A stretch of 64,000 nt of DNA from Kiritimatiellia bacterium (GTDB lineage Bacteria; Verrucomicrobiota; Kiritimatiellia; RFP12; UBA1067). This document shows positions 5,583 to 45,703 of the stretch, one piece after another (within the stretch, counting starts at the first letter, position 1; the number at the start of each line of letters is the position of its first letter). The notes beneath the pieces were generated by a model. It saw only the letters and a program-made list of their open reading frames with translations, had not been told where the DNA came from and ran no database searches. Location: NCBI GenBank assembly GCA_050949565.1, contig JBMNFY010000010.1:96001-160000 (forward strand), read 5' to 3'. The position numbers and the translations under genes were made by a program.

Positions 5583-6358
5583 AAAACGCTCAACGTTCAA
5601 CGTTCAACGCTCAACGCTCACTGAGTAGCGGGCGGGGACGCCCGCGCTCCCGAACTTGGCACAGCGTAAAACACGCGCTCAACGGGTTGGCGGTTGCCGT
5701 CTGTCTGTTGTTTATCTCCGCATGTCGTACGTCCACGCCGGAGGCGGGGCGGTATCAGTGGTTTTTTGTGCCTAGGGACGCGGACAGAACAGATCGCATA
5801 CTTGTAGCCGATACGGTTACAGGAGAGGTGGCCGAATGGAATGGGGTTTCCTGGTCGTTCTCCGATATGGCACCGCGTTCGACGCCCGATTGGGAGGCCC
5901 TCCGTGCTGTACGAGAAAGCCTGATCAAACAGCGCGAAGAGCGAGAAAAACAGGCTAAAGAAGCCCGTGAGAAACGTGTTGCTCTTGCCAAGCAATACGC
6001 GCAGATGCCGCTTGAAAAACAGGTGGCTTGGGCAGAGATGATTAGCGTTGTAAAAGTCAGCATTAGCAAGAGGCTACACAGTTATCCTGGGATTAAAATT
6101 GAGCCCTTGGAGTCCTTAAAGCGCGAGGGTGGCTTGGATCCGCCTTGCAGGCGGCAATCCTACAAGGCCACCGATGAGGGGCTTGCTGTGCGGTTTAATG
6201 GGATGGTGGACGGCGAACCGATCATGTTCTGTCTGTCACCCACGCCTACCAACATTGAGAATGTTTTCGCCGCGCCGTCGACGATCATTGACGACGTGAA
6301 AGCGGAGATCAAGCGGCAAGAGGAAAAGCAGAAAGATGTGCATGAAGCAGTTTATTGA
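5576..6358 (+). CDS. hypothetical lipoprotein (true start uncertain, probably downstream of the repeat at 5588-5680)
   Basis: LAVAVCLLFISA-C lipobox-like sequence followed by a coiled-coil; the first ~30 codons are repeat DNA; visibly lower GC than neighbours. Confidence 0.5.
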   Translation: MLKNAQRSTFNAQRSLSSGRGRPRSRTWHSVKHALNGLAVAVCLLFISACRTSTPEAGRYQWFFVPRDADRTDRILVADTVTGEVAEWNGVSWSFSDMAPRSTPDWEALRAVRESLIKQREEREKQAKEAREKRVALAKQYAQMPLEKQVAWAEMISVVKVSISKRLHSYPGIKIEPLESLKREGGLDPPCRRQSYKATDEGLAVRFNGMVDGEPIMFCLSPTPTNIENVFAAPSTIIDDVKAEIKRQEEKQKDVHEAVY

Positions 6359-7220
6359 AAAGGCGGCGGTGTTGACCGAGGCACTGCCGTACATTCAGGA
6401 TTTCAAAGGCTCGGTCGTGCTGGTGAAGGTCGGCGGCAGTGTCATGGAGGTTGAGGAGAACCTCGATCGGCTGCTGACAGACATCGCGTTCATGAACGCG
6501 GTAGGCATGAAGACGGTGCTGGTGCATGGCGGCGGCAAGGCGATCTCGCGCGGCATGGAGGCTGCGGGCGTCACGCCGCAGTTCGTGCAGGGTCTGCGCG
6601 TCACCACCGAGGAGGCCATGCGGGTCGTCGAGCGGGTGATCAAGGATGAGGTGAACGCCAAGGTGGTGCGGATGTTGCAGCGGCACTTTGCGAACGCGCG
6701 CCCGTTGCACGGCGATTGGATTTTCGGCGTCGTGAAGAAGACCGGGACTGATCCGGTCAGCGGAGCGGAGTTGGATTGGGGATTTGTAGGCGAGCCGGTG
6801 TCGGTCGACACCCGGCCGGTCGCGGAGATGCTGGATGCGGGCATTGTGCCGGTGGTGACGCCGCTGGGTACGGGGCCGGACGGCAAGGTGTATAACGTCA
6901 ACGCGGATACGGCGGCGGCGGCTTTGGCCAAAGCCATGAAGGTGCGCAAGTTGGCGTTTGTCTCGGATGTGCCGGGGCTATTGATGGACATGAATGACCC
7001 CACGTCGTTGCTGGCTACACTGCGGATCGGCAGTGTGCGCAAGCTGAAGGAGACCGGCGTTGTGGGCGGCGGCATGTTGCCGAAGCTGGACAGTTGCGTG
7101 GAGGCGATCCAGGCCGGTGTGGGCAAGGTCCACTTGGTCGATGGCCGCATGCCGCATTCACTGTTGTTGGAGATTTTTACGAAAAAAGGTGTAGGAACGG
7201 AGATTATTGCAGATGAGTAA
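6342..7220 (+). CDS. argB: acetylglutamate kinase
   Basis: EALPYIQ, VKVGGS, VHGGG, GLRVT, NVNAD, GGMLPKL. Confidence 0.95.
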   Translation: MKQFIEKAAVLTEALPYIQDFKGSVVLVKVGGSVMEVEENLDRLLTDIAFMNAVGMKTVLVHGGGKAISRGMEAAGVTPQFVQGLRVTTEEAMRVVERVIKDEVNAKVVRMLQRHFANARPLHGDWIFGVVKKTGTDPVSGAELDWGFVGEPVSVDTRPVAEMLDAGIVPVVTPLGTGPDGKVYNVNADTAAAALAKAMKVRKLAFVSDVPGLLMDMNDPTSLLATLRIGSVRKLKETGVVGGGMLPKLDSCVEAIQAGVGKVHLVDGRMPHSLLLEIFTKKGVGTEIIADE

Positions 7221-8412
7221 GAGTAAAGACATTGCCGCTTTGTTTAACCAGTATGTGATGCAGACCTATGCGCCGACCGCGACGATAACCAGCGGTAGCG
7301 GTTGCAAGGTGCGTGATCCGGATGGCAAGACCTATCTCGACTTCACGTCGGGCATTGCCGTACACAACGTCGGGCATTGCCATTCGACGGTGGTCAAAGC
7401 GGTTCAAGATCAGGTCGCCACGTTGGGGCACTGCTCCAATCTTTTTTACAACGCGAGTCAAGCGCTGCTGGCGCAGCGGCTCTCTAAACTTTCGCTGAAC
7501 GGCAAGTGCTTCTTCTGCAACTCCGGCGCGGAGGCTAACGAGGCGATGATCAAGCTCGCGCGCCTGTGGGGACACGAGAAGGGCAAGTTCGAGATCATCA
7601 CCATGCAGAACTCCTTCCACGGACGCACGCTCGCGACGATCGCCGCTACAGCGCAGACCAAGGTTCAGAAAGGCTTCGACCCGTTGCCGATCGGCTTCGC
7701 CTATGCGGAGTTCAACAATCTGGAGTCGGTCGCGGCAGCCGTCAACGAACGTACGGTCGGTGTGATGCTGGAGGCGGTTCAGGGCGAGGGAGGCGTGATC
7801 CCTGCCACTGAAGAGTTTATGGTCGGCGTGCGCAAGTTGTGCGATGAGAAGGGCCTGCTGATGCTGTGCGATGAGGTGCAGTGCGGTATGGGGCGCACCG
7901 GCAAGTGGTTCGGCTGGCAGAACTATTCGGTCACGCCGGATGCCTTCACGCTTGCCAAGTCGTTGGCCGACGGCATTCCGATGGGGGCGTTGATCGCTTC
8001 GCCCGCGCTGTCCGACGTCTTCACGCCGGGCACTCACGCCTCGACCTTCGGCGGTAATCCGGTGTCGAGCGCGGCAGCGATGGCGGTGCTGGATGTGATA
8101 GAGGAGGAGGAGTTGCTCAAGCGTGCCGAAGAGACCGGCGCGTTGTTTGCCGAAGGGCTGAGTCTCTTTGTCGATAAGCACAAGCAGGTGCTCGAAATCC
8201 GCGGCAAGGGCCTGATGCTCGGCATGGTGGTCGAGGGCTCCGCCAAGGAGGTCGTGGACATGTGCCGCGACATGGGGCTACTCTGCTGCGTGGCCGGTGA
8301 GCATGTGGTGCGCTTCCTGCCACCGCTGAACATCAAGGACACGGACCTTGAAGAGGCGCTGGAGATGATCGGCGATGCACTGGACGAGTTGTACGGCGAA
8401 GAAGAGAATTAG
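7213..8412 (+). CDS. argD: acetylornithine aminotransferase (class III)
   Basis: CNSGAEANE, SFHGRT, DEVQCGMGRTG, TLAKSL, HASTFGGNP; follows argB. Confidence 0.92.
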   Translation: MSKSKDIAALFNQYVMQTYAPTATITSGSGCKVRDPDGKTYLDFTSGIAVHNVGHCHSTVVKAVQDQVATLGHCSNLFYNASQALLAQRLSKLSLNGKCFFCNSGAEANEAMIKLARLWGHEKGKFEIITMQNSFHGRTLATIAATAQTKVQKGFDPLPIGFAYAEFNNLESVAAAVNERTVGVMLEAVQGEGGVIPATEEFMVGVRKLCDEKGLLMLCDEVQCGMGRTGKWFGWQNYSVTPDAFTLAKSLADGIPMGALIASPALSDVFTPGTHASTFGGNPVSSAAAMAVLDVIEEEELLKRAEETGALFAEGLSLFVDKHKQVLEIRGKGLMLGMVVEGSAKEVVDMCRDMGLLCCVAGEHVVRFLPPLNIKDTDLEEALEMIGDALDELYGEEEN

Positions 8413-29387: not shown

Positions 29388-29496
29388 TGTGTGGCACGGG
29401 CATCTTGCCCGTGCTTCATGGGCGGGACGCCCATGCCACGCGGGGTGTGACACGGGCATCTTGCCCGTGTTTCATGGGCGGGACGCCCATGCCACG
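29388..29496 (+). repeat. two tandem REP-like double palindromes
   Basis: Same unit as 242-294, repeated twice. Confidence 0.88.
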
Positions 29497-29513
29497 AAAG
29501 GTAGGTCAATGAG

Positions 29514-32236: not shown

Positions 32237-32534
32237 CCTAAAAAGAGCAGTTGAACCTTCAACTCTCTTTGGTTTCTGGTTTCTGGTTTCAAGGTTTCAA
32301 GGTTTCATGGTTTCATCCAAATCGGGATCGGGATCGCTATCGGGATCGATTGTTTAACCACGGAACACACCGAACACACGGAAAGGCATGGCTCTGTTTC
32401 CGTGTGTTTAGTGTGTTCCGTGGTTCCAATCAGAAATGGCGTTCTGCACCAAATAGGTGCGGCGCGGATCTCAACGGAAGCCAATGTTTACGGGGCTTTG
32501 CTCAAAATCTGCATGCTCAACTGCTCTTTTTAGG
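32237..32534. mobile_element. MITE-like element bounded by perfect 18-bp inverted repeats
   Basis: CCTAAAAAGAGCAGTTGA at 32237-32254 and its exact reverse complement at 32517-32534; non-coding repetitive interior. Confidence 0.65.
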
Positions 32535-32746
32535 GTAAATGTTTCTGGATTGCCATCCAATGAAACCCCCGACCACACCATCACGTCTGACAATGGATGC
32601 CCACCCTGATCGATGCAACAAAGGACGACTTTCATTCTGGCTATTGCATTGTAAGATCCCCTCTTCCTCCTCCCCTCAACGTTGATTTGTGCCACCACGG
32701 CAAAAGCAACCATACAGGTCAAAACAACAGCAGTAAGTTTTTTCAT
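32471..32746 (-). pseudogene. truncated partner (putative immunity) gene
   Basis: Signal/TM start, then KVVLCCIDQGGHPLSDVMV, equivalent to KVTLRVVDSRGNPVPDADV of the intact partners; cut at 32534 by the MITE. Confidence 0.6.
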
Positions 32747-32835
32747 TCCAGACCTCCTTTGACGACGACATCCCTGAACACATTGTACACGTAGAAAAAC
32801 GCCACATCTTTCAAGTCACTGTGTTTCCAGCGTCG
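32743..32835 (-). pseudogene. orphan hydrolase C-terminal stub
   Basis: RRWKHSDLKDVAFFYVYNVFRDVVVKGGLE* aligns with RWLHGDLKDMAFFYNHKLFEDVTAKGGLK*; its stop overlaps the next ATG. Confidence 0.8.
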
Positions 32836-32867
32836 TGCGGAACACAAGCCCCTTGATTATCCGCTTA

Positions 32868-34031
32868 TCACGGATAAGGTCCTTTGATCTCAAGATTCGT
32901 ATCACCCGGATTCGGATTCAGATAATACGACAATAGCACACCGCAGTAATTAGTCCCACGATCAGAGCCGCCGAACTCAAAATCGCTGACCACTGCAAAC
33001 CGCTTTCTTTCTCCTCTCCGCACGGCAACCACCCAGTACTCCTCTTTGCCGAGTGCGACATTGCTCAATATCTTGTCTTTTGTCCGAACCATGCCGAGCG
33101 TTAAGTCAGAGACCCACCCTGAATCCGGCGGCGCATACGCGAATTTGAAATCGCTGAATGAATCCTTGCGCATGGCCGCGATAGTTGCACCGCTCTCCGC
33201 CGTGACCACAAAACAGTTGGAGTAACAGTATGGTTCCGTATATTGCCATGAGTCAAACCAAAATGACAGATCCGCGACCTTCCCCGTCCCGAACGGTTCA
33301 ACCAAATCTCCGGTTTCGACGTCAAAACCCACTGTCTGATGCTTGGGGAATGTAAGCCATAACCTGTCTTTGCGTTGCATGCTAACCGGATTGCGCTTCT
33401 CCTTCAGCACGATTTCAACTGTCGGATTCCACGGCAGCCAGCGTCCGTCTTTGGCACAATCGTAACCGTTCTTGAAAAACCAGTATCGGATCACAGATGA
33501 ATAATGAGCTTGTTTTTCAATGGTGAAATTCACAAAACCCATGTTCTCGTTTTCAAGAGAGACTATTCCGTCCGCATCGGTCTCGATTTCAAAACGTCTC
33601 TTGTCTTTTGGTTGTCTTTGATTAAAGAATGCGCCTCTGACGGTCGCACTTGGAACGGGAAGCCCGCTGGAGTCAACCACACGGAGTGTGATGGCACCGA
33701 GCAAGCCGTGCTCCACCCCGCGCCTCATTTCCGGCGTATCAACCAACTGTTCGGGCAATCCGTGGTCTATTTCCAGAACCGTTACCGCACCAGAACCGAT
33801 ACTCAGCCTGCTTGTTCTGAACACATTCGATGGCTTCGCCGTCTGCTCTCGATAATTGCCAGATGTTCCAACTGCATTTTGGGCTCTAACAATCGAAGCC
33901 GCTTGTCCGGCCAACTTGTCCTCCGGCCTTCCAGTAATAGTCTCCGTGTGCTTCACAGGCCATCTTGACAAAAGGAACAATAATATGCCCGTCAAAACAG
34001 TTGCGATCACCACATATAGTGCCTGTTTCAT
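32868..34031 (-). CDS. membrane-anchored partner protein with carboxypeptidase-regulatory-like domain (putative immunity protein)
   Basis: N-terminal TM, ITLRVVDSSGLPVPSATV, CAKDGRWLPWNPTVEIVLKEKRNP, NPNPGDTNLE; paralog of 35713-36864. Confidence 0.7.
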   Translation of the reverse strand: MKQALYVVIATVLTGILLFLLSRWPVKHTETITGRPEDKLAGQAASIVRAQNAVGTSGNYREQTAKPSNVFRTSRLSIGSGAVTVLEIDHGLPEQLVDTPEMRRGVEHGLLGAITLRVVDSSGLPVPSATVRGAFFNQRQPKDKRRFEIETDADGIVSLENENMGFVNFTIEKQAHYSSVIRYWFFKNGYDCAKDGRWLPWNPTVEIVLKEKRNPVSMQRKDRLWLTFPKHQTVGFDVETGDLVEPFGTGKVADLSFWFDSWQYTEPYCYSNCFVVTAESGATIAAMRKDSFSDFKFAYAPPDSGWVSDLTLGMVRTKDKILSNVALGKEEYWVVAVRRGERKRFAVVSDFEFGGSDRGTNYCGVLLSYYLNPNPGDTNLEIKGPYP

Positions 34032-35635
34032 TTCAAGCCTCCTTTCGCGGTGACATCCTCAAACAGTTTGTGGTTGTAGAAGAATGCCATGTCCTTCAAA
34101 TCACCGTGCAGCCAGCGCATTTGTAAATCATCATGATTCCGCCCCCATCCGTTGGGACGGGCAACCGTATCCATGTTGATATTTCTATTAGGAAGCGGAT
34201 TGCCAGCGACATCCTTGATGTTAACGATTTGTCCCCCAGTCGGCCCCGACAACGCAGGTAGCCCTCGCGCTAGTAGCTCATTCTGCGTTGCGACGGGGAT
34301 TGTGTTGGTGAACATGGACGCGGGGCAGCGCAGGAACACCGGATGCTCGCCGAGTTCGGAGAGTAGGACGGATTCGGTCTGCACGGCAGGCGGATAAAAG
34401 GCGCCGTTGGGGGTGATCATATGGAAACCCGGACCGACCGCGCCCGACCATGAACTGGTCACGGCGGGTTCCTGATAGGTGTAGCTGTAGACGAAGCCCC
34501 ACCCGGCCCAGGATGTGCCCTCTGGGGTGACACCTTGGCTGAGACGGCCTTTGTGAACCTCCTGCTTGTGCCACGCGAACCATCCCCACGTCAGTTTATC
34601 CCAGATATCCATCCCTTCATTACTGCTGGGAGTGCCAGAAAAGAGTTCCAGCACCTCGTCGCCAGATGAGTAGTAGTTGTAAAGCTCGGTCAAGGCAGAC
34701 ACAGATGCGAGACGGTCCTTCCACGTGAGTTTCCTGCGGTCATCGGTCGGGTCGCCGGCAAAGAACTCGTGCCACTTGGCGCTCCAGCAGGTGTTGGTGT
34801 AGTCGCGCCAGTGTTCATGTGCCATCCAGTTGGCGGTGTCGGGCAAGTCACACCAATGAGACGAATCAAATGCCTCCGCCGCGACAGCGGCGTGGAACAT
34901 GAAGTACTTGTGAACGCTCATGCCGTGGTCGGCGATGGCCGATGAGACGACCATGTTGCCGAGACTGTGCGCCATGATGACCTTCTGGCCCAAAAGTCTG
35001 TTGACATAGCTCTTGAGGTGCGGCGCGGTTGCGAAGGCGGAGACCACATCTTCGTGGTAGCGAAAGACGTTTATGCCGCCAATATCGCCCCGCCACGTCA
35101 CCCCGTGGAAGCGCGCTTTGGAGCCGGACTGCCAGAGGCGCTTGAACATCTCGGAGTGCCAGGCGCGCGCCTCTTCCGGCGTGACGTTGAAGCCGTGCAG
35201 GAAGACGACGTTCGTGCCGTTCGCGGGCGGGAGGCAGGAACCCGGCGTCACGGCGGCGGCGCCGTCGCGCAGGTTGACGCGGGCGTACATCTGCTCCACG
35301 GGCGCGACGTGCAGGGGCAGCGACTTCTCCAGGACCTTCCTGCCTTTGCGCCAGATTTCAAGGACGAGGGGCTCGGTGGTCGCCGCGCGGCCCTCGATGA
35401 GGATGACGCCCTTGGACGGGTCGGCGCGGACGGCATCGGCGAAGACGCCGGGGAGCGCCACGCCGTCGGCGGTGATCTTGCGCGTGGCAACGGTCGGCGC
35501 GGCGGATGTTTGTTCCGGCGAGCGGCTGGCGTGTTCCACCACGGCAGCGCGTTTTGTCGTTTGGGTACGGACAACAAACAAGGCTATTATCGCCAGCACA
35601 AAAGATGCAACAATGATGACAGAGCGTTTGTTCAT
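34028..35635 (-). CDS. alpha/beta-hydrolase variant cassette fused to a partner-type N-terminal anchor
   Basis: VFLHGFNV, AHSLG, YNYYSSGDE, WLHGD; first ~49 aa resemble the N-terminus of 35713-36864. Confidence 0.75.
   Translation of the reverse strand: MNKRSVIIVASFVLAIIALFVVRTQTTKRAAVVEHASRSPEQTSAAPTVATRKITADGVALPGVFADAVRADPSKGVILIEGRAATTEPLVLEIWRKGRKVLEKSLPLHVAPVEQMYARVNLRDGAAAVTPGSCLPPANGTNVVFLHGFNVTPEEARAWHSEMFKRLWQSGSKARFHGVTWRGDIGGINVFRYHEDVVSAFATAPHLKSYVNRLLGQKVIMAHSLGNMVVSSAIADHGMSVHKYFMFHAAVAAEAFDSSHWCDLPDTANWMAHEHWRDYTNTCWSAKWHEFFAGDPTDDRRKLTWKDRLASVSALTELYNYYSSGDEVLELFSGTPSSNEGMDIWDKLTWGWFAWHKQEVHKGRLSQGVTPEGTSWAGWGFVYSYTYQEPAVTSSWSGAVGPGFHMITPNGAFYPPAVQTESVLLSELGEHPVFLRCPASMFTNTIPVATQNELLARGLPALSGPTGGQIVNIKDVAGNPLPNRNINMDTVARPNGWGRNHDDLQMRWLHGDLKDMAFFYNHKLFEDVTAKGGLK
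34870..35488. repeat. homology arm of about 620 bp, repeated at ~37652-38270
   Basis: Long exact matches at a constant offset of 2782 bp, e.g. gaagcgcgctttggagccggactgccagaggcgcttgaacatctcgg. Confidence 0.9.
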
Positions 35636-35690
35636 TTCAGATCCCCCTTCTGGACAATGTCGTCAAACAGAGGCGCGATGTAGGAGCCGC
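35632..35690 (-). pseudogene. orphan hydrolase C-terminal stub
   Basis: SYIAPLFDDIVQKGDLK* matches the hydrolase C-terminal pattern; its stop overlaps ATG 35635. Confidence 0.65.
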
Positions 35691-35712
35691 AAAACACTTG
35701 CTCCTGTTCGTC

Positions 35713-36864
35713 CTATGGATATATCTCTTTCCCTTCTAAATTCCGATCATTGTTGGTTGGATTGTAGCGATACTGCAATAACATGTATCCGGTTTCTCCG
35801 TCACGACTTTCGTCAAAAACAAATCGGTAGAACTTGCTGTATAATGATTCCAATATCTTACCGCTTTCGTCGGTAACGCATCTTGATTTCATGATGATAT
35901 AATTATCAGCCGACAAGCTCGTGTCTACCTCAATAACCGTTGGGGTGCGCCTGAATGAAAAAGAAAACTCACGGGTATATCCTGAGGCTGGTGCTTCATG
36001 TAGAGAGACAAACTGGCTATACAAATCCTTCTGCAGAATGATTGCCCCGCATCCCTCGTCAAACGACAGAACAAGGTCTTTTTTTAGGTTAGATCGATCA
36101 TTCCCGTTTGATGTGTATGTTAAAAAGAAATCAGCTACCGTTCCTGACCCATGGGGATCAACCAGTGCTCGTTTTTTACAATCAAACCCAACACGAATTC
36201 CTTTGGGCAAAAGAACTTTAATGTTCTGCACGGAAATCAGGTCGATCGGGTTACGTTTCTCCTTCATCACAACTTCCAGCGTGGGGTTCCACGGAACCCA
36301 TCTTCCGTTTTCAGCGCAGGGTTTGCCTTCGCGGTAAAACCAGTAATTGCGGTAGGTCCTGTAGTATCCCTCTTTCGAGGCATGGAAATGGACGTCCGAC
36401 TCCGACATGTGCTTCGCCGTGAAAAACCCGTTTTTATCGGTCTTGCCGTCAACGGAGTACGGGCCGCGATGGAAGAAGGCGACCTTGACATCGGCGTCCG
36501 GCACGGGGTTGCCGCGCGAGTCCACCACGCGGAGCGTGACCTTGGCGAGCGCGCCGTTCCTCTTCGCGTCCTTGACGGCCGGCGTGTTAGGCCCCCGTTC
36601 GCCGAGCTTGTACTCCTGCTGCGCCTGTGTCAGGTAGAGGGTCGAGCCAGGGGCGCAAAAGGGATGGGCACCGCCCTCGCGCGGACGCGTTTCCTTTTTC
36701 CCGCCCATAGTGACAACGGCTGGCACGGCAGATGTTTGTTCGGAAGCGCGGCGGACTTCGCTTGAAAGGGCAGGCGGTTTTTCGACACGGCTTCGGGTAA
36801 AAACAAGTCCGACCCCGAATATGACTAACGCAAAAACCGTGATGATAATCGTTCGCTTGTTCAT
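35713..36864 (-). CDS. membrane-anchored partner protein with carboxypeptidase-regulatory-like domain (putative cognate immunity protein)
   Basis: ATGA-coupled to the large hydrolase; TM anchor, VTLRVVDSRGNPVPDADV, KEGYY, CAENGRWVPWNPTLEVVMKEKRNP, NPTNNDRNLE. Confidence 0.7.
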   Translation of the reverse strand: MNKRTIIITVFALVIFGVGLVFTRSRVEKPPALSSEVRRASEQTSAVPAVVTMGGKKETRPREGGAHPFCAPGSTLYLTQAQQEYKLGERGPNTPAVKDAKRNGALAKVTLRVVDSRGNPVPDADVKVAFFHRGPYSVDGKTDKNGFFTAKHMSESDVHFHASKEGYYRTYRNYWFYREGKPCAENGRWVPWNPTLEVVMKEKRNPIDLISVQNIKVLLPKGIRVGFDCKKRALVDPHGSGTVADFFLTYTSNGNDRSNLKKDLVLSFDEGCGAIILQKDLYSQFVSLHEAPASGYTREFSFSFRRTPTVIEVDTSLSADNYIIMKSRCVTDESGKILESLYSKFYRFVFDESRDGETGYMLLQYRYNPTNNDRNLEGKEIYP

Positions 36865-39800
36865 TGTAAATTCCCCTGTTCAACAATGCTGTCGAAAATC
36901 TTGTGGTTGTAAAAATACGACATGTTCTTGATGTCGCCGTGCAGCCATCTGTCCTGATAGGTGCCATGCATCCTCCCCCAACCGTTTGGACGATAACTAA
37001 TATCATTCATATCAACATTGTTATCGCTCAAAATTTCAGGGACATTCCTATTCCCCGCCGCGCCGGAGAGGGCGGGAACCGCCTTGGCGAGGAGGGCGAA
37101 TCGGTCGGCCTCCGTGATCGGGTTTGCGAACATGCTGTCGGGAGCATGCCGGAAGCTGATGCAGACGAGGCCGGTGAGTTCCGTTTCCGAAAAGGCGTTC
37201 GCCTCGGCGGCGGTGTGGAGCGGGTGCGGCTCCTCGTTCATCATGGAGACCAGCTCAAAGCCCCAGCCCGCCCACGAGGTGCCGAAAAGCCCGGCAAATT
37301 CGTCTATCCCGGTGCGCCCCTTGTACAGTTCCTGTTTCTGCCATGAGTAGCGTTCCCTACCCGTCACGACCGGAATGCCGAGGTGAAGCTCAACCCCCTC
37401 CGTGGGAATGGGAGTCCCGTCGTACTGCTCGAAAATCTCATCCCCTGACGAATAGTAGTTGTAGAGACCGGGCAGGCAGGCGGTGAAACGCCCCTTCCAT
37501 GTGAGCGAGTGGCGGTCGTCATTCCCGAACACAAGATCAGGGTCGAACAACTGGTGATAAAGGGCGGACCACGTTCTGGGCAGGTAATCTGCCCAATCTT
37601 CATGCACCATGTTGTTGGCGGCGACCGTGGCGTTCCAGAGCGTGGGGTCGTACGCCTCGGCGGGGACGGCGGCGTTGAACATGAAGTACTTGTGAACGCT
37701 CATGCCGTGGTCGGCGATGGCCGAGGAGACGACCATGTTGCCCAAGCTGTGCGCCATCATGATTTTCTCGCCGGACAAGCCGTTGACGTAGTTCTTGAGG
37801 TGCGGCGCGGTTGCGAAGGCACTGACCACATCCTCGTGGTAGCGAAGGGCATTAGGCCATCCGATGTCACCCTCCCACGTCACCCCGTGGAAGCGCGCTT
37901 TGGAGCCGGACTGCCAGAGGCGCTTGAACATCTCGGCATGCCGTGCGCGCGCCTCTTCCGCATTCACATTGTAGCCGTGCAGGAAGACGACGTTCGTGCC
38001 GTTCGCGGGCGGGAGGCAGGACCCCGGCGTCACGGCGGCGGCGCCGTCGCGCAGGTTGACGCGGGTGTACATCTGCTCCACGGGCGCGACGCACAGGGGG
38101 AGCGACTTCTCCAGGACCTTCTTGCCCTTGCGCCAGATTTCAAGGACGAGGGGTTCGGTGGTCTCGGCGCGGCCCTCGATGAGGATGACGCCCTTGGACG
38201 GGTCGGCGCGGACGGCATCGACGAAGACGCCGGGGAGCGCCACGCCGTCGTCGGTGATCTTGCGCGTGGCGGCGGAGGCGAGTCCCGCGACGTCCGAAAC
38301 GAGGAAGGCGCCGGCGTCGTTGGTGGAGAGCGCGGTCGGGACGTAGGCGAGCGCGTTCCTGGCGTGGCGGAGCTTGATCTCGATCCTGCCGCCGCCGGGC
38401 ACCGCGTCGAGAAGGGCGAGGGCTTCGCTAAGATCCAGCCACACGGGGAAGAAGTCCGGCAGGTCGGCGCGGCCGTTGACGCGCTTGTCCCTGAAGTTGG
38501 CCCTGGACAGCCAGCCGGAGGACCGGCCGGGCCGGTCGCTTTCGCCCTCCGCGACGTCGCCCGTGTCCGCGTCGTCGTTGATCCAGAGGCGGAAGGTGTC
38601 CCCGGACACTTCAGCGGGGGAGATCTCGCGGTCGCGGTTGTAGTCGGGGACGAGCCCGGCGCGGATGACGGTGATCCGGGCGCTCTTCCCGGCGGCGTAG
38701 AAGGTGTCGCCCTCGTTATGGACGCCGAGGATGCCGTCGGGGTCGTCGGCGAGGACGGCCATGCCGGGCGCGGAGGCGTCCGGGGAGAACTCAAGCGTGT
38801 CGTCGTAGTCGGGGCGGGGGGTGTCGTCGTAGTCGGGGTCGGTGGCGACGTGTTCGAGCGCGACCTCGTAGGTCGCTCCGGCGGCAAGCCTGACGGTGAG
38901 CGGGTCGGGCTGGCCGAACGCGCGGTTCACCAGCGTCCAGCCGGGGCGGGCGTCGCCGGATACCGGGGTGACCGTCAGGCGGTATTTTTCGGAGTGGCTG
39001 CCGCTCGTGTCGCCGAAGAGGACCGTGAAGGGGACGGCCTCGCGGGGCTGGCTGTCGGCGGGGTCGAGCGGGTCGAACTCCGGCATGTTCCGGAACTCCC
39101 AGTAATCGTTCAGCCCGTCGCCGTCGGTGTCGGGGTTGAGCGGGTCGGTGCCGGCATCCACCTCGTTGCCGTCCGCAAGGCCGTCGCCGTCGGTGTCGTA
39201 ACCAAACGGGTCGGTGCCGAGGGCAAGCTCCGCGCCGTCGTTCAGCCTGTCGTCGTCGGTGTCGGGGTCGAGCGGGTCGGTGCCGATCCCGAAGCGGTAT
39301 TCCAGCGCGAGGCCGTCCGCGACGGACGCTGTTTCGCATGAAAACTGGAGCGCCTGCGGGACCGTCCGCGCCCCCAGCGTGGCCGAGCGCCCGTCGCCGT
39401 AGCCGCCGACGTTCCGGTAGAACACGCGGAAGCGGTTCGAAACGCCCTCCTCGAAGACAAGTTGGAACGAGACGAGGTTGTTCGTGGTCGCGCCGCCGGA
39501 ACGGAAGCCCGCGTCTTTGTATTCGATGACGCAGTGGCGGTGGCCGTTTGTCGTGACATCCGCCAGCGTGACGGCGGAACCGAGGTCTGCGGGGTAGAGG
39601 CACAGGTCGTCCCAGAACCCGGCGGCGAGCAGGCCGCAGCCGGACGGCATGTACGTATCGCCCATTTCGTCATTGGCGTGCCGCCCGGTGCCGATCGTCC
39701 CGGCTCCCGGGAAAAACCCGGCGATCCCGTTGGCGTTGGCCGACAGGTTGGTCAGCACCCGCCCCCCGAAGAAGAGCGGAAACGGGAGCGGCTCCTCCAC

Positions 39801-41132
39801 GCAGCCCCCGTTCATGTCGGGCGCGAACCGCGCGGTCAGGTCCGTCCCGCCCGACGCGTCGAACCACCGGAAGGCCGTCGCCGCGACCGACGGCGGGCCG
39901 TATTCCTCCCCGTCCGTGAGGCCGTCGTCGTCGCTGTCGCTGTCGCGCGGATTCGTCCCCAGCGCGGCCTCCAGGGCGTTCGAAAGCCCGTCGCCGTCGG
40001 GGTCGGCGTCGGGGCCGTCGCTCCCGTCGAGCGGATTCAGTCCCAGCGCGATCTCCGCGCCGTCGGGACACCCGTCGTTGTCCGTGTCGGCGTCGTCCGG
40101 GTCGGTGAGATAGACCCATGTCTCCATCGCGTCGGAAAGGCCGTCGCCGTCCGCGTCGATGAGCGGGGCGGCGCGGAAAAACGCGGAGGCTGACACCTCC
40201 GCATTGAACCGTGTGGCGACGTTTGTGTAGGCCACGCCGGAGACATAAAGGGAGTCGGCCGTGTTCGTGACGGCCGGCCCCTCGGGGCCCTCCGCCCGCA
40301 CGGGAGGGGGGAGCAGGTTCAAGGGAATCGAGTTGGATGCGGAGCCCCCGGACGGCTCGACCGGGATCTGCGCCAGCGGATGCCACGCGGTGCCGCCCGC
40401 CGCGTTCGTCGCGTCGAGGCGCGGCGCGCAGAGGATGTCCAGCCGGTTCCCCGGCAGCGGATGGCCGTCCGGCCACGCCAGGGCGATCTGCACGGCATTG
40501 GAGTCCACCCGGATGCCCGTGAACCGCAGCCCGTTCGTCCCGCCCGTCCCGCCTCCGCCCGGCGGGTTCCAGAAGCTCTGCCGCGCCTCCGCATAGGCGC
40601 CGAGGTTGGCCGCGTCGACAAAATGCCATTCCATGTCGACATGCGACGGCAGCAGCAGCAGGCGCGTGAAGTCCAGCGCGGACTGGGAGACGCCGTTCGT
40701 CGGCGCGTCCGGCACGCCGTGCAGCTCCGCGATCCAGTCCGGGGTGTAGCCCGCGCCGAGCAGCGGCGGCAGCGTGTCGAACAGGGAGCCGCCCGCGTTG
40801 TAGAAGCCGATGACGCCGCTCGCGTCGTCCGTGCGCAGCGTGACGGGGAAAATCTCGACCCCGCCGAAATTCGTCGCCGTGAGCCCCCCCAGGAACCCCG
40901 CGCCGAATCCGTTCGTGGCGGCCGCCGTCCGGTCGACCGCCCCGCCCCACACCGTGAGGACGCGGTTCGTCACGGGGAAGAACACCCCGATGCCCGACGC
41001 CTGCTCCCGTTCGTACGCCAGCGCCAGGTCCGTCACGTTTTGCGGCTCGCCCGCAAATCCCGGAGGGGGGAAGCCCGCCGCCGCCCGCGCGAGCGTCACC
41101 AGCACGAAACAGAGACGCAGGACGGCAGGCAT
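36861..41132 (-). CDS. large secreted protein with TSP3-like Ca-binding repeats and C-terminal alpha/beta-hydrolase (putative polymorphic lipase toxin)
   Basis: Signal peptide from Met 41132 (ORF open to 41246); two clusters of DxDGDGLxD repeats; VFLHGYNV, AHSLG, SSGDE, WLHGD. Confidence 0.75.
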   Translation of the reverse strand: MPAVLRLCFVLVTLARAAAGFPPPGFAGEPQNVTDLALAYEREQASGIGVFFPVTNRVLTVWGGAVDRTAAATNGFGAGFLGGLTATNFGGVEIFPVTLRTDDASGVIGFYNAGGSLFDTLPPLLGAGYTPDWIAELHGVPDAPTNGVSQSALDFTRLLLLPSHVDMEWHFVDAANLGAYAEARQSFWNPPGGGGTGGTNGLRFTGIRVDSNAVQIALAWPDGHPLPGNRLDILCAPRLDATNAAGGTAWHPLAQIPVEPSGGSASNSIPLNLLPPPVRAEGPEGPAVTNTADSLYVSGVAYTNVATRFNAEVSASAFFRAAPLIDADGDGLSDAMETWVYLTDPDDADTDNDGCPDGAEIALGLNPLDGSDGPDADPDGDGLSNALEAALGTNPRDSDSDDDGLTDGEEYGPPSVAATAFRWFDASGGTDLTARFAPDMNGGCVEEPLPFPLFFGGRVLTNLSANANGIAGFFPGAGTIGTGRHANDEMGDTYMPSGCGLLAAGFWDDLCLYPADLGSAVTLADVTTNGHRHCVIEYKDAGFRSGGATTNNLVSFQLVFEEGVSNRFRVFYRNVGGYGDGRSATLGARTVPQALQFSCETASVADGLALEYRFGIGTDPLDPDTDDDRLNDGAELALGTDPFGYDTDGDGLADGNEVDAGTDPLNPDTDGDGLNDYWEFRNMPEFDPLDPADSQPREAVPFTVLFGDTSGSHSEKYRLTVTPVSGDARPGWTLVNRAFGQPDPLTVRLAAGATYEVALEHVATDPDYDDTPRPDYDDTLEFSPDASAPGMAVLADDPDGILGVHNEGDTFYAAGKSARITVIRAGLVPDYNRDREISPAEVSGDTFRLWINDDADTGDVAEGESDRPGRSSGWLSRANFRDKRVNGRADLPDFFPVWLDLSEALALLDAVPGGGRIEIKLRHARNALAYVPTALSTNDAGAFLVSDVAGLASAATRKITDDGVALPGVFVDAVRADPSKGVILIEGRAETTEPLVLEIWRKGKKVLEKSLPLCVAPVEQMYTRVNLRDGAAAVTPGSCLPPANGTNVVFLHGYNVNAEEARARHAEMFKRLWQSGSKARFHGVTWEGDIGWPNALRYHEDVVSAFATAPHLKNYVNGLSGEKIMMAHSLGNMVVSSAIADHGMSVHKYFMFNAAVPAEAYDPTLWNATVAANNMVHEDWADYLPRTWSALYHQLFDPDLVFGNDDRHSLTWKGRFTACLPGLYNYYSSGDEIFEQYDGTPIPTEGVELHLGIPVVTGRERYSWQKQELYKGRTGIDEFAGLFGTSWAGWGFELVSMMNEEPHPLHTAAEANAFSETELTGLVCISFRHAPDSMFANPITEADRFALLAKAVPALSGAAGNRNVPEILSDNNVDMNDISYRPNGWGRMHGTYQDRWLHGDIKNMSYFYNHKIFDSIVEQGNLQ

Positions 41133-41496
41133 TTTCGCTTTTGTGCTTTTCTTGCTCGTGTCTAGATCACCCGTTGCCTCAATTGCCTTGTCACGACAAC
41201 ATATTATCACACCGCGAAAACGCTTCGCAATCCCTGATTGTCTCATGTCAAACTACTACGTCCCAACAACCATCACTAAACCGGCCACAAATAGCAGTGC
41301 ACTTCTTGATAACGCATCTGTTTTTCATGAAGTTTCATGTGTTTCATGGTTCCACTTGAATGTTGAACGCTATGGTCGTTGCCCAGCGGTGTTGCAAGCA
41401 AGCAGCAACATAAATTGTGGCCGGGTCAGTAACTTTCGCCTGTCGTTTCAGCGTCGGGTATTATATGCTGAGGTAATCGGACAGAGGAGAACGTAG

Positions 41497-45303: not shown

Positions 45304-45484
45304 GCGATTTTTGTGACCACCGAGTGGTCACAAAGACGAGTGTAAAAAAGGACGGCGTGATCGCCGCCGGGCTCGCGAGGCGCCGGGAGGGGCAAGCGTC
45401 TGCTTGCCCGCGGACGAGCAGACGCTCGTCCCGACGATCAAAAACAAAAAAGAAACGAGGGCCTTGCAAAACCCCTTGCCTGCA

Positions 45485-45537
45485 GGTGTGGCACGGGCAT
45501 CTTGCCCGTGTTTCATGGGCGGGACGCCCATGCCACG
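45485..45537 (+). repeat. REP-like double palindrome within a mosaic repeat block (45311-45696)
   Basis: Identical to 242-294. Confidence 0.85.
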
Positions 45538-45703
45538 AGAGGTTTTACAAGATCCTCGAAACATCTGCGCAATCCGCGGATGAAACCGGAAACCGCAAGA
45601 CACGTTGTGGCGGACAAGGACGTCCGCGCCCGGCTCTCTGCTCCCCTTTTCACCAGAAACGCATGATCTTCGCACCCCCCTGTCACTAACCGATTACCGG
45701 CCA

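Follow-up and report, generated by a model that had tools for sequence, protein, structure and literature searches.

A candidate Sec-exported polymorphic hydrolase toxin with periplasm-facing partners and orphan cassettes in a Kiritimatiellia bacterium

The window analysed here is a stretch of 64,000 nucleotides from a Kiritimatiellia bacterium found in anaerobic digesters (contig JBMNFY010000010.1, positions 96,001 to 160,000). On its minus strand, a large protein with a signal-peptide-like N-terminus and a C-terminal alpha/beta-hydrolase (H1) is followed by a predicted membrane-anchored partner (P1), a remnant of a hydrolase tail (stub 1), an orphan cassette with a complete hydrolase domain (H2), its partner (P2), a second tail remnant (stub 2) and a truncated partner (P3). 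The locus probably, with real room for doubt, encodes a polymorphic toxin that is exported by the Sec pathway and does not depend on a type VI secretion system (T6SS), together with an immunity protein that faces the periplasm and a set of displaced orphan cassettes. This interpretation is based on the combination of an enzyme at the C-terminal end, an exported partner coupled to it, truncated enzyme ends that each have a partner, arrays composed of partners only, cassette types that remain paired, a carrier that is common to different tips, and an AT-rich mosaic. The family is real, conserved and large, and is best read as a variant of the Sec-dependent polymorphic toxins; toxicity, substrate, partner binding, export route and target are what we infer from this architecture.

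Kiritimatiellae are abundant glycan degraders of digesters, guts and sediments, and we know of no work on how they compete. If the interpretation is correct, the locus would be the first toxin-immunity system for this group, would add a large new immunity family with a confidently predicted fold, and would provide a case of allelic specificity inside a catalytic domain. It would also pose the question of how a Sec-exported protein of 150-400 kDa is delivered into the periplasm of another cell without type V, type VI or type VII machinery. The family is large and its members are annotated as 'hypothetical' or 'Ig-like domain-containing', so that naming it would help with thousands of metagenomic genes.

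Architecture of the array

H1 extends from 36861 to 41132 (minus strand, as for all genes of the array) and has 1424 residues when counted from the methionine at 41132. The open reading frame (ORF) is open back to 41246, which would give 1461 residues for the whole ORF. A signal-peptide-like stretch lies directly after the internal Met at 41132, and a database protein of 1432 residues is 98% identical to H1. P1, the putative immunity protein (35713 to 36864, 383 residues), overlaps the H1 stop codon by four bases. The same overlap is found between H2 (34028 to 35635, 535 residues) and its partner P2 (32868 to 34031, 387 residues). Stub 1 (35632 to 35712), which ends in ...LFDDIVQKGDLK* and places an ATGA on the H2 start, was identified by direct reading of the sequence, since its length is below what a match by a hidden Markov model (HMM) needs. 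Stub 2 (32743 to 32847, 34 residues) ends in ...VFRDVVVKGGLE* with an ATGA on the P3 start; it matches the hydrolase tail in phmmer (E=1e-8) and has 62% identity to H2 residues 506-534 in a search of the own genome. P3 (32471 to 32746) is a partner-type ORF of 91 residues that still has a signal peptide and the beginning of beta domain one, and that enters a repeat element from ~32538 downwards.

The order and the positions of these features, the ATGA overlaps at the junctions (four bases in H1/P1 and H2/P2, and at the ends of both stubs) and the presence of four different hydrolase C-termini had all been reported in the initial annotation, and each could be located or read as described. In the own genome, the hydrolase and partner families occur at this locus only. 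Because of this, and because the same layout is found in dozens of other genomes, the locus is not a chance arrangement.

The hydrolase domain

The hydrolase domain of H1 (36864 to 38276, minus strand, 471 residues) consists of a short beta pre-domain followed by the alpha/beta-hydrolase. It contains an HG oxyanion motif, an AHSLG nucleophile motif, and the motifs SSGDE and WLHGD. In an alignment of 20 sequences (A1), H100, G101, S177, D253, R255 and H446 are among the invariant residues; by motif, the invariant positions are HG, the Ser of GxSxG, D-x-R, the N/S in YNYYSS and the His of WLHxD. The serine of AHSLG is present in all 20 sequences, and the catalytic motifs are intact in both H1 and H2.

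DUF900 is the sole Pfam family that exceeds its cut-off in this domain. It is detected in H1 (E=2.1e-5) and also in H2, with scores of 24.6-26.6 bits against a cut-off of 20.5, and the match is partial, with only positions 22-114 of the 232 profile positions aligned, from the HG motif to the nucleophile. An hmmscan search of the domain with E-values up to 5 lists DUF900, Hydrolase_4, DUF1405 and DUF676, and no other family. The AlphaFold2 model of the H1 domain is of moderate quality only, with a predicted local distance difference test score (pLDDT) of 63.5 and a predicted template modelling score (pTM) of 0.70. Fold comparisons with Foldseek and VIA-align return a flat list of alpha/beta-hydrolases (top E ~1e-4, Z 10.7-12.6). 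Small lipases head this list, generic esterases and lipases are tied with them, and the toxin Tle3 (8boz) is found at Z 11.1, with a root mean square deviation (rmsd) of 4.3 over 210 aligned residues. By sequence profile, the best solved relative is pancreatic lipase RP2 (E=0.0035). In view of the flat fold list and the profile match to pancreatic lipase RP2, sequence and model together point to a serine alpha/beta-hydrolase, for which esterase or lipase is the most likely activity. The narrower designation as a lipase in the initial annotation goes too far, as sequence and fold indicate an alpha/beta-hydrolase only, with lipases and esterases among the tied top matches.

A variable half within a conserved enzyme

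The hydrolase domains of H1 and H2 are 64% identical overall. The identity is ~90% through the pre-domain to just past AHSLG, and 20-50% from there on. In view of the drop past the nucleophile, the variable part must be the C-terminal half of one catalytic domain, and not a separate domain. The variation is confined to a single enzyme family, and different toxin folds are not exchanged for one another here. At the DNA level, the conserved part corresponds to a direct repeat of 619 bp (arms at 37654 to 38270 and at 34872 to 35488, minus strand), with 90.6% identity according to blastn, which covers the pre-domain and the N-terminal hydrolase half of H1 and H2. This repeat is likely to be a substrate for cassette exchange by recombination. 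A joint that links the H1 and H2 repeats was not found among assembled contigs, which drop rare variants.

H2 is itself a chimera. Its residues 1-47 are a signal anchor of the partner type, which closely resembles the start of P1 and is fused in frame to the hydrolase pre-domain. The composition of the locus is also mosaic. The GC content at third codon positions is highest in the carrier (0.91) and in the conserved halves of the two hydrolases (0.90 and 0.89). Their variable halves have 0.73 and 0.68 and the partners 0.46-0.62, and the genome as a whole has a GC content of 0.604. These figures bear out the earlier impression of a GC-rich constant region with AT-richer tips and partners.

The partner family

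P1 and P2 are 29-34% identical and share the motifs GRWxPWNPT..KEKRNP and NPxxxDxNLE, the columns of which are invariant or nearly so in alignments of 11-42 homologs. Their initial description as divergent paralogs with common motifs therefore holds. In Pfam, the partners have only weak matches to CarboxypepD_reg and Ig-like families. The AlphaFold2 model of P1 has a pLDDT of 88.2 and predicts a transmembrane (TM) helix (residues 3-24), a disordered linker (26-62), a transthyretin-like/CarboxypepD_reg domain (~102-204) and a beta-sandwich (207-377). In VIA comparisons, the first of the two domains has Z ~9 to transthyretin-like domains, and the second is most similar to the HmuY/BfrB group (Z 11.0, rmsd 3.3, 133 aligned residues).

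Among 203 full-length members of the partner family, an N-terminal hydrophobic segment is present in 174, a lipobox-like motif in 13 and a second TM segment in none. As the proteins have an N-terminal anchor and no second TM segment, topology rules make it almost certain that the predicted soluble part lies outside the cytoplasm.

When 1.84 billion representatives are searched with a partner profile, the result is 1,939 clusters (at 50% identity) at E<=1e-30 and 5,665 clusters at E<=1e-10, the weaker matches including unrelated giant proteins with Ig repeats. The sources are Kiritimatiellae, where the proteins are named 'hypothetical protein' or 'Ig-like domain-containing protein', and the ESM Atlas contains only 'hypothetical protein' clusters of Verrucomicrobiota. 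Three runs of a complex prediction for the H1 hydrolase domain with P1 residues 95-383 scored 0.73, 0.00 and 0.00, without controls, and are evidence neither way.

The carrier and the pre-module

In H1, the signal-peptide-like N-terminus is followed by an N-terminal module, TSP3 repeats, a pre-hydrolase module (pre-module) and the C-terminal alpha/beta-hydrolase. Pfam detects TSP3_bac five times (E=7.5e-22). The pre-module (38280 to 39068, minus strand, ~260 residues) has motifs of the type WINDDxD...NGRxDLxDFFPVWL, no match in Pfam and no solved relative in a sequence search of the PDB (E=1.7). Homologs of the hydrolase domain are numerous, at least 740 proteins at E<=0.001 in the length class of 803-2557 residues alone. 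Counted by a crude pattern, TSP3-like motifs occur at least twice in 88 of the 120 best homologs, and 32 are without them. The pre-module was found by iterated jackhmmer in 119 of the same 120 proteins, and ends a median of 18 residues ahead of the hydrolase. It is the pre-module, rather than TSP3, that is the constant companion of the enzyme, and it may have a role in membrane targeting or translocation. The hydrolase is also the very end of these proteins: the median number of residues beyond it is 0, only two of the 120 have more than 30, and H1 and H2 have none.

The initial annotation had described the carrier as a signal peptide plus TSP3-like repeats, without Rhs, FHA, LXG, VgrG or PAAR parts. 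The signal-peptide-like N-terminus can be retained, but TSP3 as the defining part cannot, in view of the counts above. The absence of known parts is in agreement with Pfam, both for H1 and for seven large homologs: Rhs, VgrG, PAAR, TPS, FHA, MAFB-N and LXG have no match in H1 or in the seven homologs, and TPS/FHA, RHS/YD, MAFB-N and LXG are missing from the Pfam annotations precomputed for the 120 homologs listed. Each of the seven large homologs has 6-16 TSP3_bac repeats, and some have RCC1, Laminin_G_3 or beta-helix domains.

Two paralogs of the H1 N-terminal module are encoded elsewhere in the own genome, both without the hydrolase. The first, of 830 residues (G000:C10:353065-355557; L038:11065-13557, minus strand), combines the module with seven TSP3 repeats and has 36-39% identity to H1 over H1 residues 30-350 and 447-634. 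Its gene has a four-base overlap with the gene for a protein of 1851 residues with an RHS repeat match (G000:C10:347513-353068; L038:5513-11068, minus strand), and an N-terminal module of the H1 type therefore adjoins an Rhs-type protein elsewhere in the genome. The second, of 1717 residues (G000:C17:806233-811386; L037:8233-13386, minus strand), has RCC1 and eight TSP3 repeats, and in its C-terminal region a weak CHAP match (E=0.0076) under the cut-off. Its gene is followed by genes for small signal-peptide proteins of 277 and 286 residues without family. This second paralog may thus represent a related carrier with an envelope hydrolase of another kind as its tip, although the weak match is no more than a hint of a different fold on such a module.

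Distribution and linkage

Using single-protein queries, 41 genomes of the same order were surveyed. The partner is found in 20 and the hydrolase in 21 of them; 17 have both families, three the partner only, four the hydrolase only and 17 neither. In two genomes of the four-member 'hydrolase only' group, HMMs reveal pieces of a partner next to the hydrolase. A set of 20 loci that were picked with the tables of both families at hand is biased by this choice. In 19 of these loci, a full-length hydrolase protein of 600-3,600 residues is followed by an overlapping partner, and in many of them there are, further on, either several partners in a row or 5'-truncated pieces of hydrolase that each have a partner.

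An unbiased set was obtained by scanning 185,579 species genomes with the partner motifs only (from an alignment of 11 rows). It comprises 31 loci, in bins labelled as Kiritimatiellae/-ia, Verrucomicrobia/-ota, Lentisphaerae, Victivallales and Opitutia, and in a few oddly labelled ones. Their 49 partner ORFs lie directly behind a hydrolase tail in 29 cases (19 with an exact overlap of four bases), behind another partner in 11, at a contig edge in six and in neither setting in three. Conversely, a partner follows 29 of the 32 hydrolase-tail ORFs, and the other three are terminal stubs. The adjacency and the variable arrays, for which a check across genomes of the Planctomycetes, Verrucomicrobia and Chlamydiae group had been suggested, thus recur, with orphans and tandem arrays, and so does the layout of a full-length protein with orphan pairs of C-terminus and partner, which is real in Kiritimatiellae and related genomes. 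Orphan cassettes are likewise present in G029, G009, G001, G015, G024 and at other loci. Signal peptides are found on the full-length forms and are mostly missing from the orphans. Lone partners of the lipoprotein type also exist.

Tandem partners behind a single hydrolase occur for example in L024 (G037:C35:4178-9991), with five, one of which is an ORF of 612 residues (6113-7951), and in L021/L049 (G024:C43), with four; for the most part there are no hydrolase fragments in between. In G029, a third copy of the carrier (P0168, G029:C11:258540-259475; L081:6316-11001) aligns with P0083 residues 1-1806 over 1838 columns, at 86% identity. Its hydrolase domain ends at profile position 328 of 465, without the His motif, and no partner gene adjoins it. 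The enzyme is thus broken in the one full carrier that was observed to have no partner.

Within the genus, the family is present at this site in two of seven genomes; four others have the same flanking genes without it beside them. A clean empty site was not found in the same-genus genomes, where the flanking genes lie on separate contigs with unrelated neighbours.

The distribution bears on the possibility that H1 is a surface adhesin or matrix protein, that its hydrolase remodels the envelope or matrix of the producer itself, and that the partner serves as a membrane receptor or anchor, with no antagonism between cells. We regard this as quite improbable. The TSP3 region of H1 (residues ~356-448) does resemble the Myxococcus proteins CglD and MtsD, but in NCBIfam the matches are far under the family cut-offs (63.8 bits against 400 for CglD, 36.2 bits against 800 for MtsD), and reflect shared repeats, not orthology. 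That both own-genome paralogs of the N-terminal module do without the hydrolase would also suit an adhesin. On the other hand, the family is patchy, as its occurrence at the site within the genus illustrates, and absent from ~40% of the genomes of the order, and it is present in multiple copies with orphans in some genomes. Patchiness and copy variation suggest an accessory rather than a housekeeping envelope function, and the mosaicism of the cassettes would be left unexplained.

Pairing and displacement of cassettes

The cassette types keep their pairing across genomes. The variable half of H1 is 65% identical to that of the first cassette in G009:C161 and 72% identical to that of a cassette in L039, and P1 is 51% and 70% identical to the respective partners. 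Likewise, the variable half of H2 is 73% identical to that of the second cassette in G009 and 51% identical to that of the main cassette in G029, with 53.5% and 58% identity of P2 to the respective partners. G029 represents another family within the order. Its full-length protein and H1 have 86% identity over 691 residues of the carrier and 77% in the conserved hydrolase half, but only 41% in the variable half. With near-identical carriers and differing tips, the cassette type of H2/P2 (type B; type A is that of H1/P1) is thus an orphan here and the main tip in G029, which is what a displacement of C-terminal cassettes by recombination predicts. P0107, P0111 and P0168 were considered as further cases of the same N-terminal half with different C-terminal halves, and were rejected as a frameshifted tail, a contig-end partial sequence and a truncated copy, respectively.

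The stubs and P3 are plainly remnants, P3 is cut by a repeat element, and H2 is without a carrier. It could therefore be argued that the downstream cassettes are decaying duplicates without present function and that only H1, with or without P1, matters. This appears very improbable indeed. H2 and P2 are intact ORFs of full length with all conserved motifs, a genus other than this one also has the second cassette in intact form, at the identities given above for G009, and contigs from RNA libraries touch both H2 and P2.

Repeat elements around the array

The distal end of the array is bounded by a high-copy repeat element of ~300 bp (32237 to 32534, no strand assigned), which cuts P3, the boundary lying at 32534-32538. 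In the genome, the element is present in 31 copies that measure 250 bp or more, with a mean identity of 92.9%, and has 176 hits in all, and it is multi-copy in genomes of the same genus too. As P3 runs into this repeat, the distal end of the array has been cut by the element. A piece of ~35 bp from the same repeat family (88 hits) lies at 41318-41354, just upstream of H1, so that the array is bracketed by members of one repeat family. Two more repeats of ~100 bp, at 29389-29497 and 45457-45557, have many copies in genomes of the genus, with 92-97% identity.

Two candidate findings from this region were discarded. A single Rfam match of the repeat element to a plant miRNA family, with 26.7 bits against a gathering score of 245, is due to chance. 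Joints that skip ~8.9 kb (32392 to 41321) could be taken for deletions of the array but are not: they are supported by 21-31 letters of a short repeat, which has a high copy number and lies at both ends.

Expression, turnover and a possible nutritional role

H1 is covered in long stretches, with few or no mismatches, by contigs assembled from the metatranscriptome libraries of three studies. The coverage extends to the junctions of H1 with P1 and of P1, stub and H2, to P1 itself and to parts of P2, and the contigs touch H2.

Several observations weigh against the toxin interpretation, or at least against rapid diversification. The coverage by RNA-library contigs fits transcription, but carry-over of DNA is possible, and the depth cannot rank genes. 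In 14 DNA runs from at least 12 bioreactor or digester studies, 0.91-0.95 of the sampled words of the array are present. As the array is near-complete in all of them, the turnover looks slow, not rapid. The closest relatives have retained this C-terminus (98% identity for P0080, and 93% for the C-terminal domain of P0081), and the order of cassettes A then B is also found in G009, which belongs to another genus. In a mirror-tree analysis of 30 non-identical hydrolase/partner pairs (34 with duplicates), rho is 0.47 for the variable half and 0.40 for the conserved half, a weak co-divergence in pairs that are not independent. One complete hydrolase, in G025:C106, has no downstream partner, and in three genomes a partner is found without hydrolase. 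No alternative toxin fold was seen on a carrier of the H1 type beside this partner, and the variable half is poorly predicted in the AlphaFold2 model of the hydrolase. Finally, the N-terminal regions of homologs contain LamG, RCC1, beta-helix and LTD domains, which fit surface enzymes of glycan degraders as well.

Some of these observations would be expected if H1 were a secreted or surface-bound esterase or lipase with a nutritional role, acting for instance on lipids or acylated glycans in digesters, with the partner as its dedicated periplasmic helper and the array as a product of duplication and decay rather than of an arms race. Such a helper, which would fold the enzyme or hold it inactive until export, would have functional parallels in the Lif foldases and in the PhlB-type proteins that inhibit secreted phospholipases. 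This explanation is unlikely in our estimate, without being far-fetched. It is in line with the Laminin_G_3, beta-helix, RCC1 and LTD domains of the homologs, with the maintenance of the same array in close relatives and many samples, and with the use of a single enzyme family for all variants, and the partner, with its membrane anchor, its translational coupling and its constant downstream position, has the features of a helper. However, it leaves unexplained why 5'-truncated enzyme fragments have a partner each, why four or five tandem partners follow one hydrolase, why there are lone partners of the lipoprotein type, and why one carrier is found with different paired cassettes and with AT-rich tips and partners. 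Moreover, the partner is all-beta, unlike the helical Lif foldases. Were a nutritional role to prove correct, the locus would encode a new secreted esterase with a private inhibitor, which would be less surprising but would retain its value for annotation.

Proposed mechanism

In the polymorphic toxin interpretation, H1 would pass through Sec by means of its N-terminal signal peptide, and would then probably leave the cell by a type II-like route or be retained at the surface. Such a sequence of Sec export and type II-like step is possible, as we infer from the genome, which has five secretin genes over the cut-off. By contrast, TssC (PF05943) and Hcp (PF05638) have 0 matches in this 92%-complete genome, with a positive E. 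coli control. The N-terminal part of H1, with its lineage-specific module and Ca-binding TSP3 repeats, may be a stalk or adhesin, and the pre-module and the C-terminal serine alpha/beta-hydrolase would be the active end. The hydrolase is most likely an esterase or (phospho)lipase that would act on a component of the envelope. Since the partner is exported, the site of action would be in the periplasm or on the membrane, as for the T6SS effectors and immunity proteins Tle/Tli.

P1, translationally coupled to H1, would be held by its anchor in the inner membrane and expose both beta domains to the periplasm, where it could bind and block the cognate hydrolase, so that the producer and its kin are protected. 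The determinants of specificity would be the partner and, in the hydrolase, the variable C-terminal half. The rest of the array, from H2/P2 to P3 with both stubs, would consist of older, displaced cassettes, which may provide extra immunity genes and a reservoir. Recombination across the 619-bp stretch could place the H2/P2 type on the carrier.

A bolder version of this proposal, which we put forward as a rather doubtful possibility, would make the locus an example of the main weapon of Kiritimatiellae. It would represent a very large unrecognised family of Sec-exported hydrolase bacteriocins that are independent of injection machines. The pre-module would cross the outer membrane of the target, and the specificity in the catalytic C-terminal half would be read by a periplasmic immunity fold composed of a transthyretin-like and an HmuY-like domain.

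Comparison with known systems

The classification of polymorphic toxins by Zhang et al. 2012 (PMC3482391) includes, in the part of the text available, a Sec/type II secretion system (T2SS) class with signal peptides and lineage-specific N-terminal modules, for example MafB. The available part also lists three alpha/beta-hydrolase toxin families, Tox-ABhydrolase-1/2/3, of which Tox-ABhydrolase-1 is DUF2235 and T6SS-linked, and Tox-ABhydrolase-3 goes with Imm66 (mostly alpha) and Imm69 (alpha+beta). As the Sec-dependent class and alpha/beta-hydrolase toxins are both listed there, the kind of system is known. The suggestion of an undescribed class of polymorphic toxins in the initial annotation can therefore not be upheld with respect to the class, whereas the particular family of hydrolase, pre-module and partner does appear undescribed; Tox-ABhydrolase-2/3 were compared by description only, so that relatives are possible there. 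The all-beta partner differs from Imm66 and Imm69 as they are described in the available text of PMC3482391. In the same text, 'TSP' and 'thrombospondin' occur 0 times, and stalks of TSP3, RCC1 or LamG are not among the repeats listed for the Sec/T2SS class.

In the literature, to the extent that its text was accessible to searching, there was no description of the hydrolase/pre-module/partner system or of a polymorphic toxin of Kiritimatiellae, also when Verrucomicrobia were included. A search for DUF900 with toxin and immunity led to the classification review only, and one for TSP3 with polymorphic toxin to Myxococcus outer-membrane exchange only. DUF900 (PF05990) itself is an alpha/beta-hydrolase of unknown function, and the proteins with DUF900 proper, in the accessible part of PMC11878206, are alphaproteobacterial and have an N-terminal TM segment or lipoprotein signal, instead of being the tip of a giant protein.

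The locus resembles MafB/MafI and the Sec/T2SS class, as far as the available text describes them, in that a signal peptide is the only recognisable export signal and is followed by a lineage-specific module, in having a putative C-terminal toxin with the putative immunity gene directly downstream, and in the presence of orphan C-terminal cassettes with their own putative immunity genes. It differs in that Pfam finds no MAFB-N/DUF1020 in H1. Furthermore, the MafB tips are unrelated toxin folds, whereas the tips here belong to one alpha/beta-hydrolase family that varies in its C-terminal half. The immunity proteins of MafB are small and cytoplasmic, whereas the candidate here is predicted to be a membrane-anchored, periplasmic beta protein with two domains.

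With Tle/Tli, the locus shares a GxSxG alpha/beta-hydrolase and an exported partner, the putative immunity protein, encoded next door. Where such a hydrolase is paired with an immunity protein that is exported, the implied place of action is the periplasm or a membrane. In contrast to Tle/Tli, TssC and Hcp were not found in the genome, and there is no VgrG, PAAR or adaptor part. The Pfam families associated with Tle, by models that we take to correspond to Tle1-4, are not detected at E up to 0.1, and only the partial DUF900 match is. The proteins here also have a Sec signal peptide and 1.4-3.6 thousand residues, and we know of no orphan C-terminal cassettes at Tle loci.

In Rhs and CdiA systems, displaced 5'-truncated C-terminal modules, each with an immunity gene, lie downstream of the main gene. 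A further likeness is the conserved stretch that is common to the main gene and the orphan, as a substrate for recombination, together with AT-richer tips. The locus differs from these systems by the absence of RHS/YD, TPS, FHA, VENN and a PxxxxDPxGL boundary, and its own boundary lies inside the catalytic domain, just past the nucleophile. The SitA lipoprotein toxins of Myxococcus are reportedly moved by outer-membrane exchange. They are similar in being Sec-exported polymorphic toxins that reach neighbouring cells without an injection machine, but H1 has no lipobox. Lif is mainly helical, whereas the modelled partner is all-beta after its TM helix (pLDDT 88).

The system therefore does not appear to be a member of Tle/Tli, it is not Rhs, contact-dependent inhibition (CDI), MafB or LXG, and the partner is not Lif-like. 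What is unusual about it, next to the lack of a known delivery machine, is a new pre-module, a new two-domain partner and a variation that occurs only in the C-terminal half of the catalytic domain.

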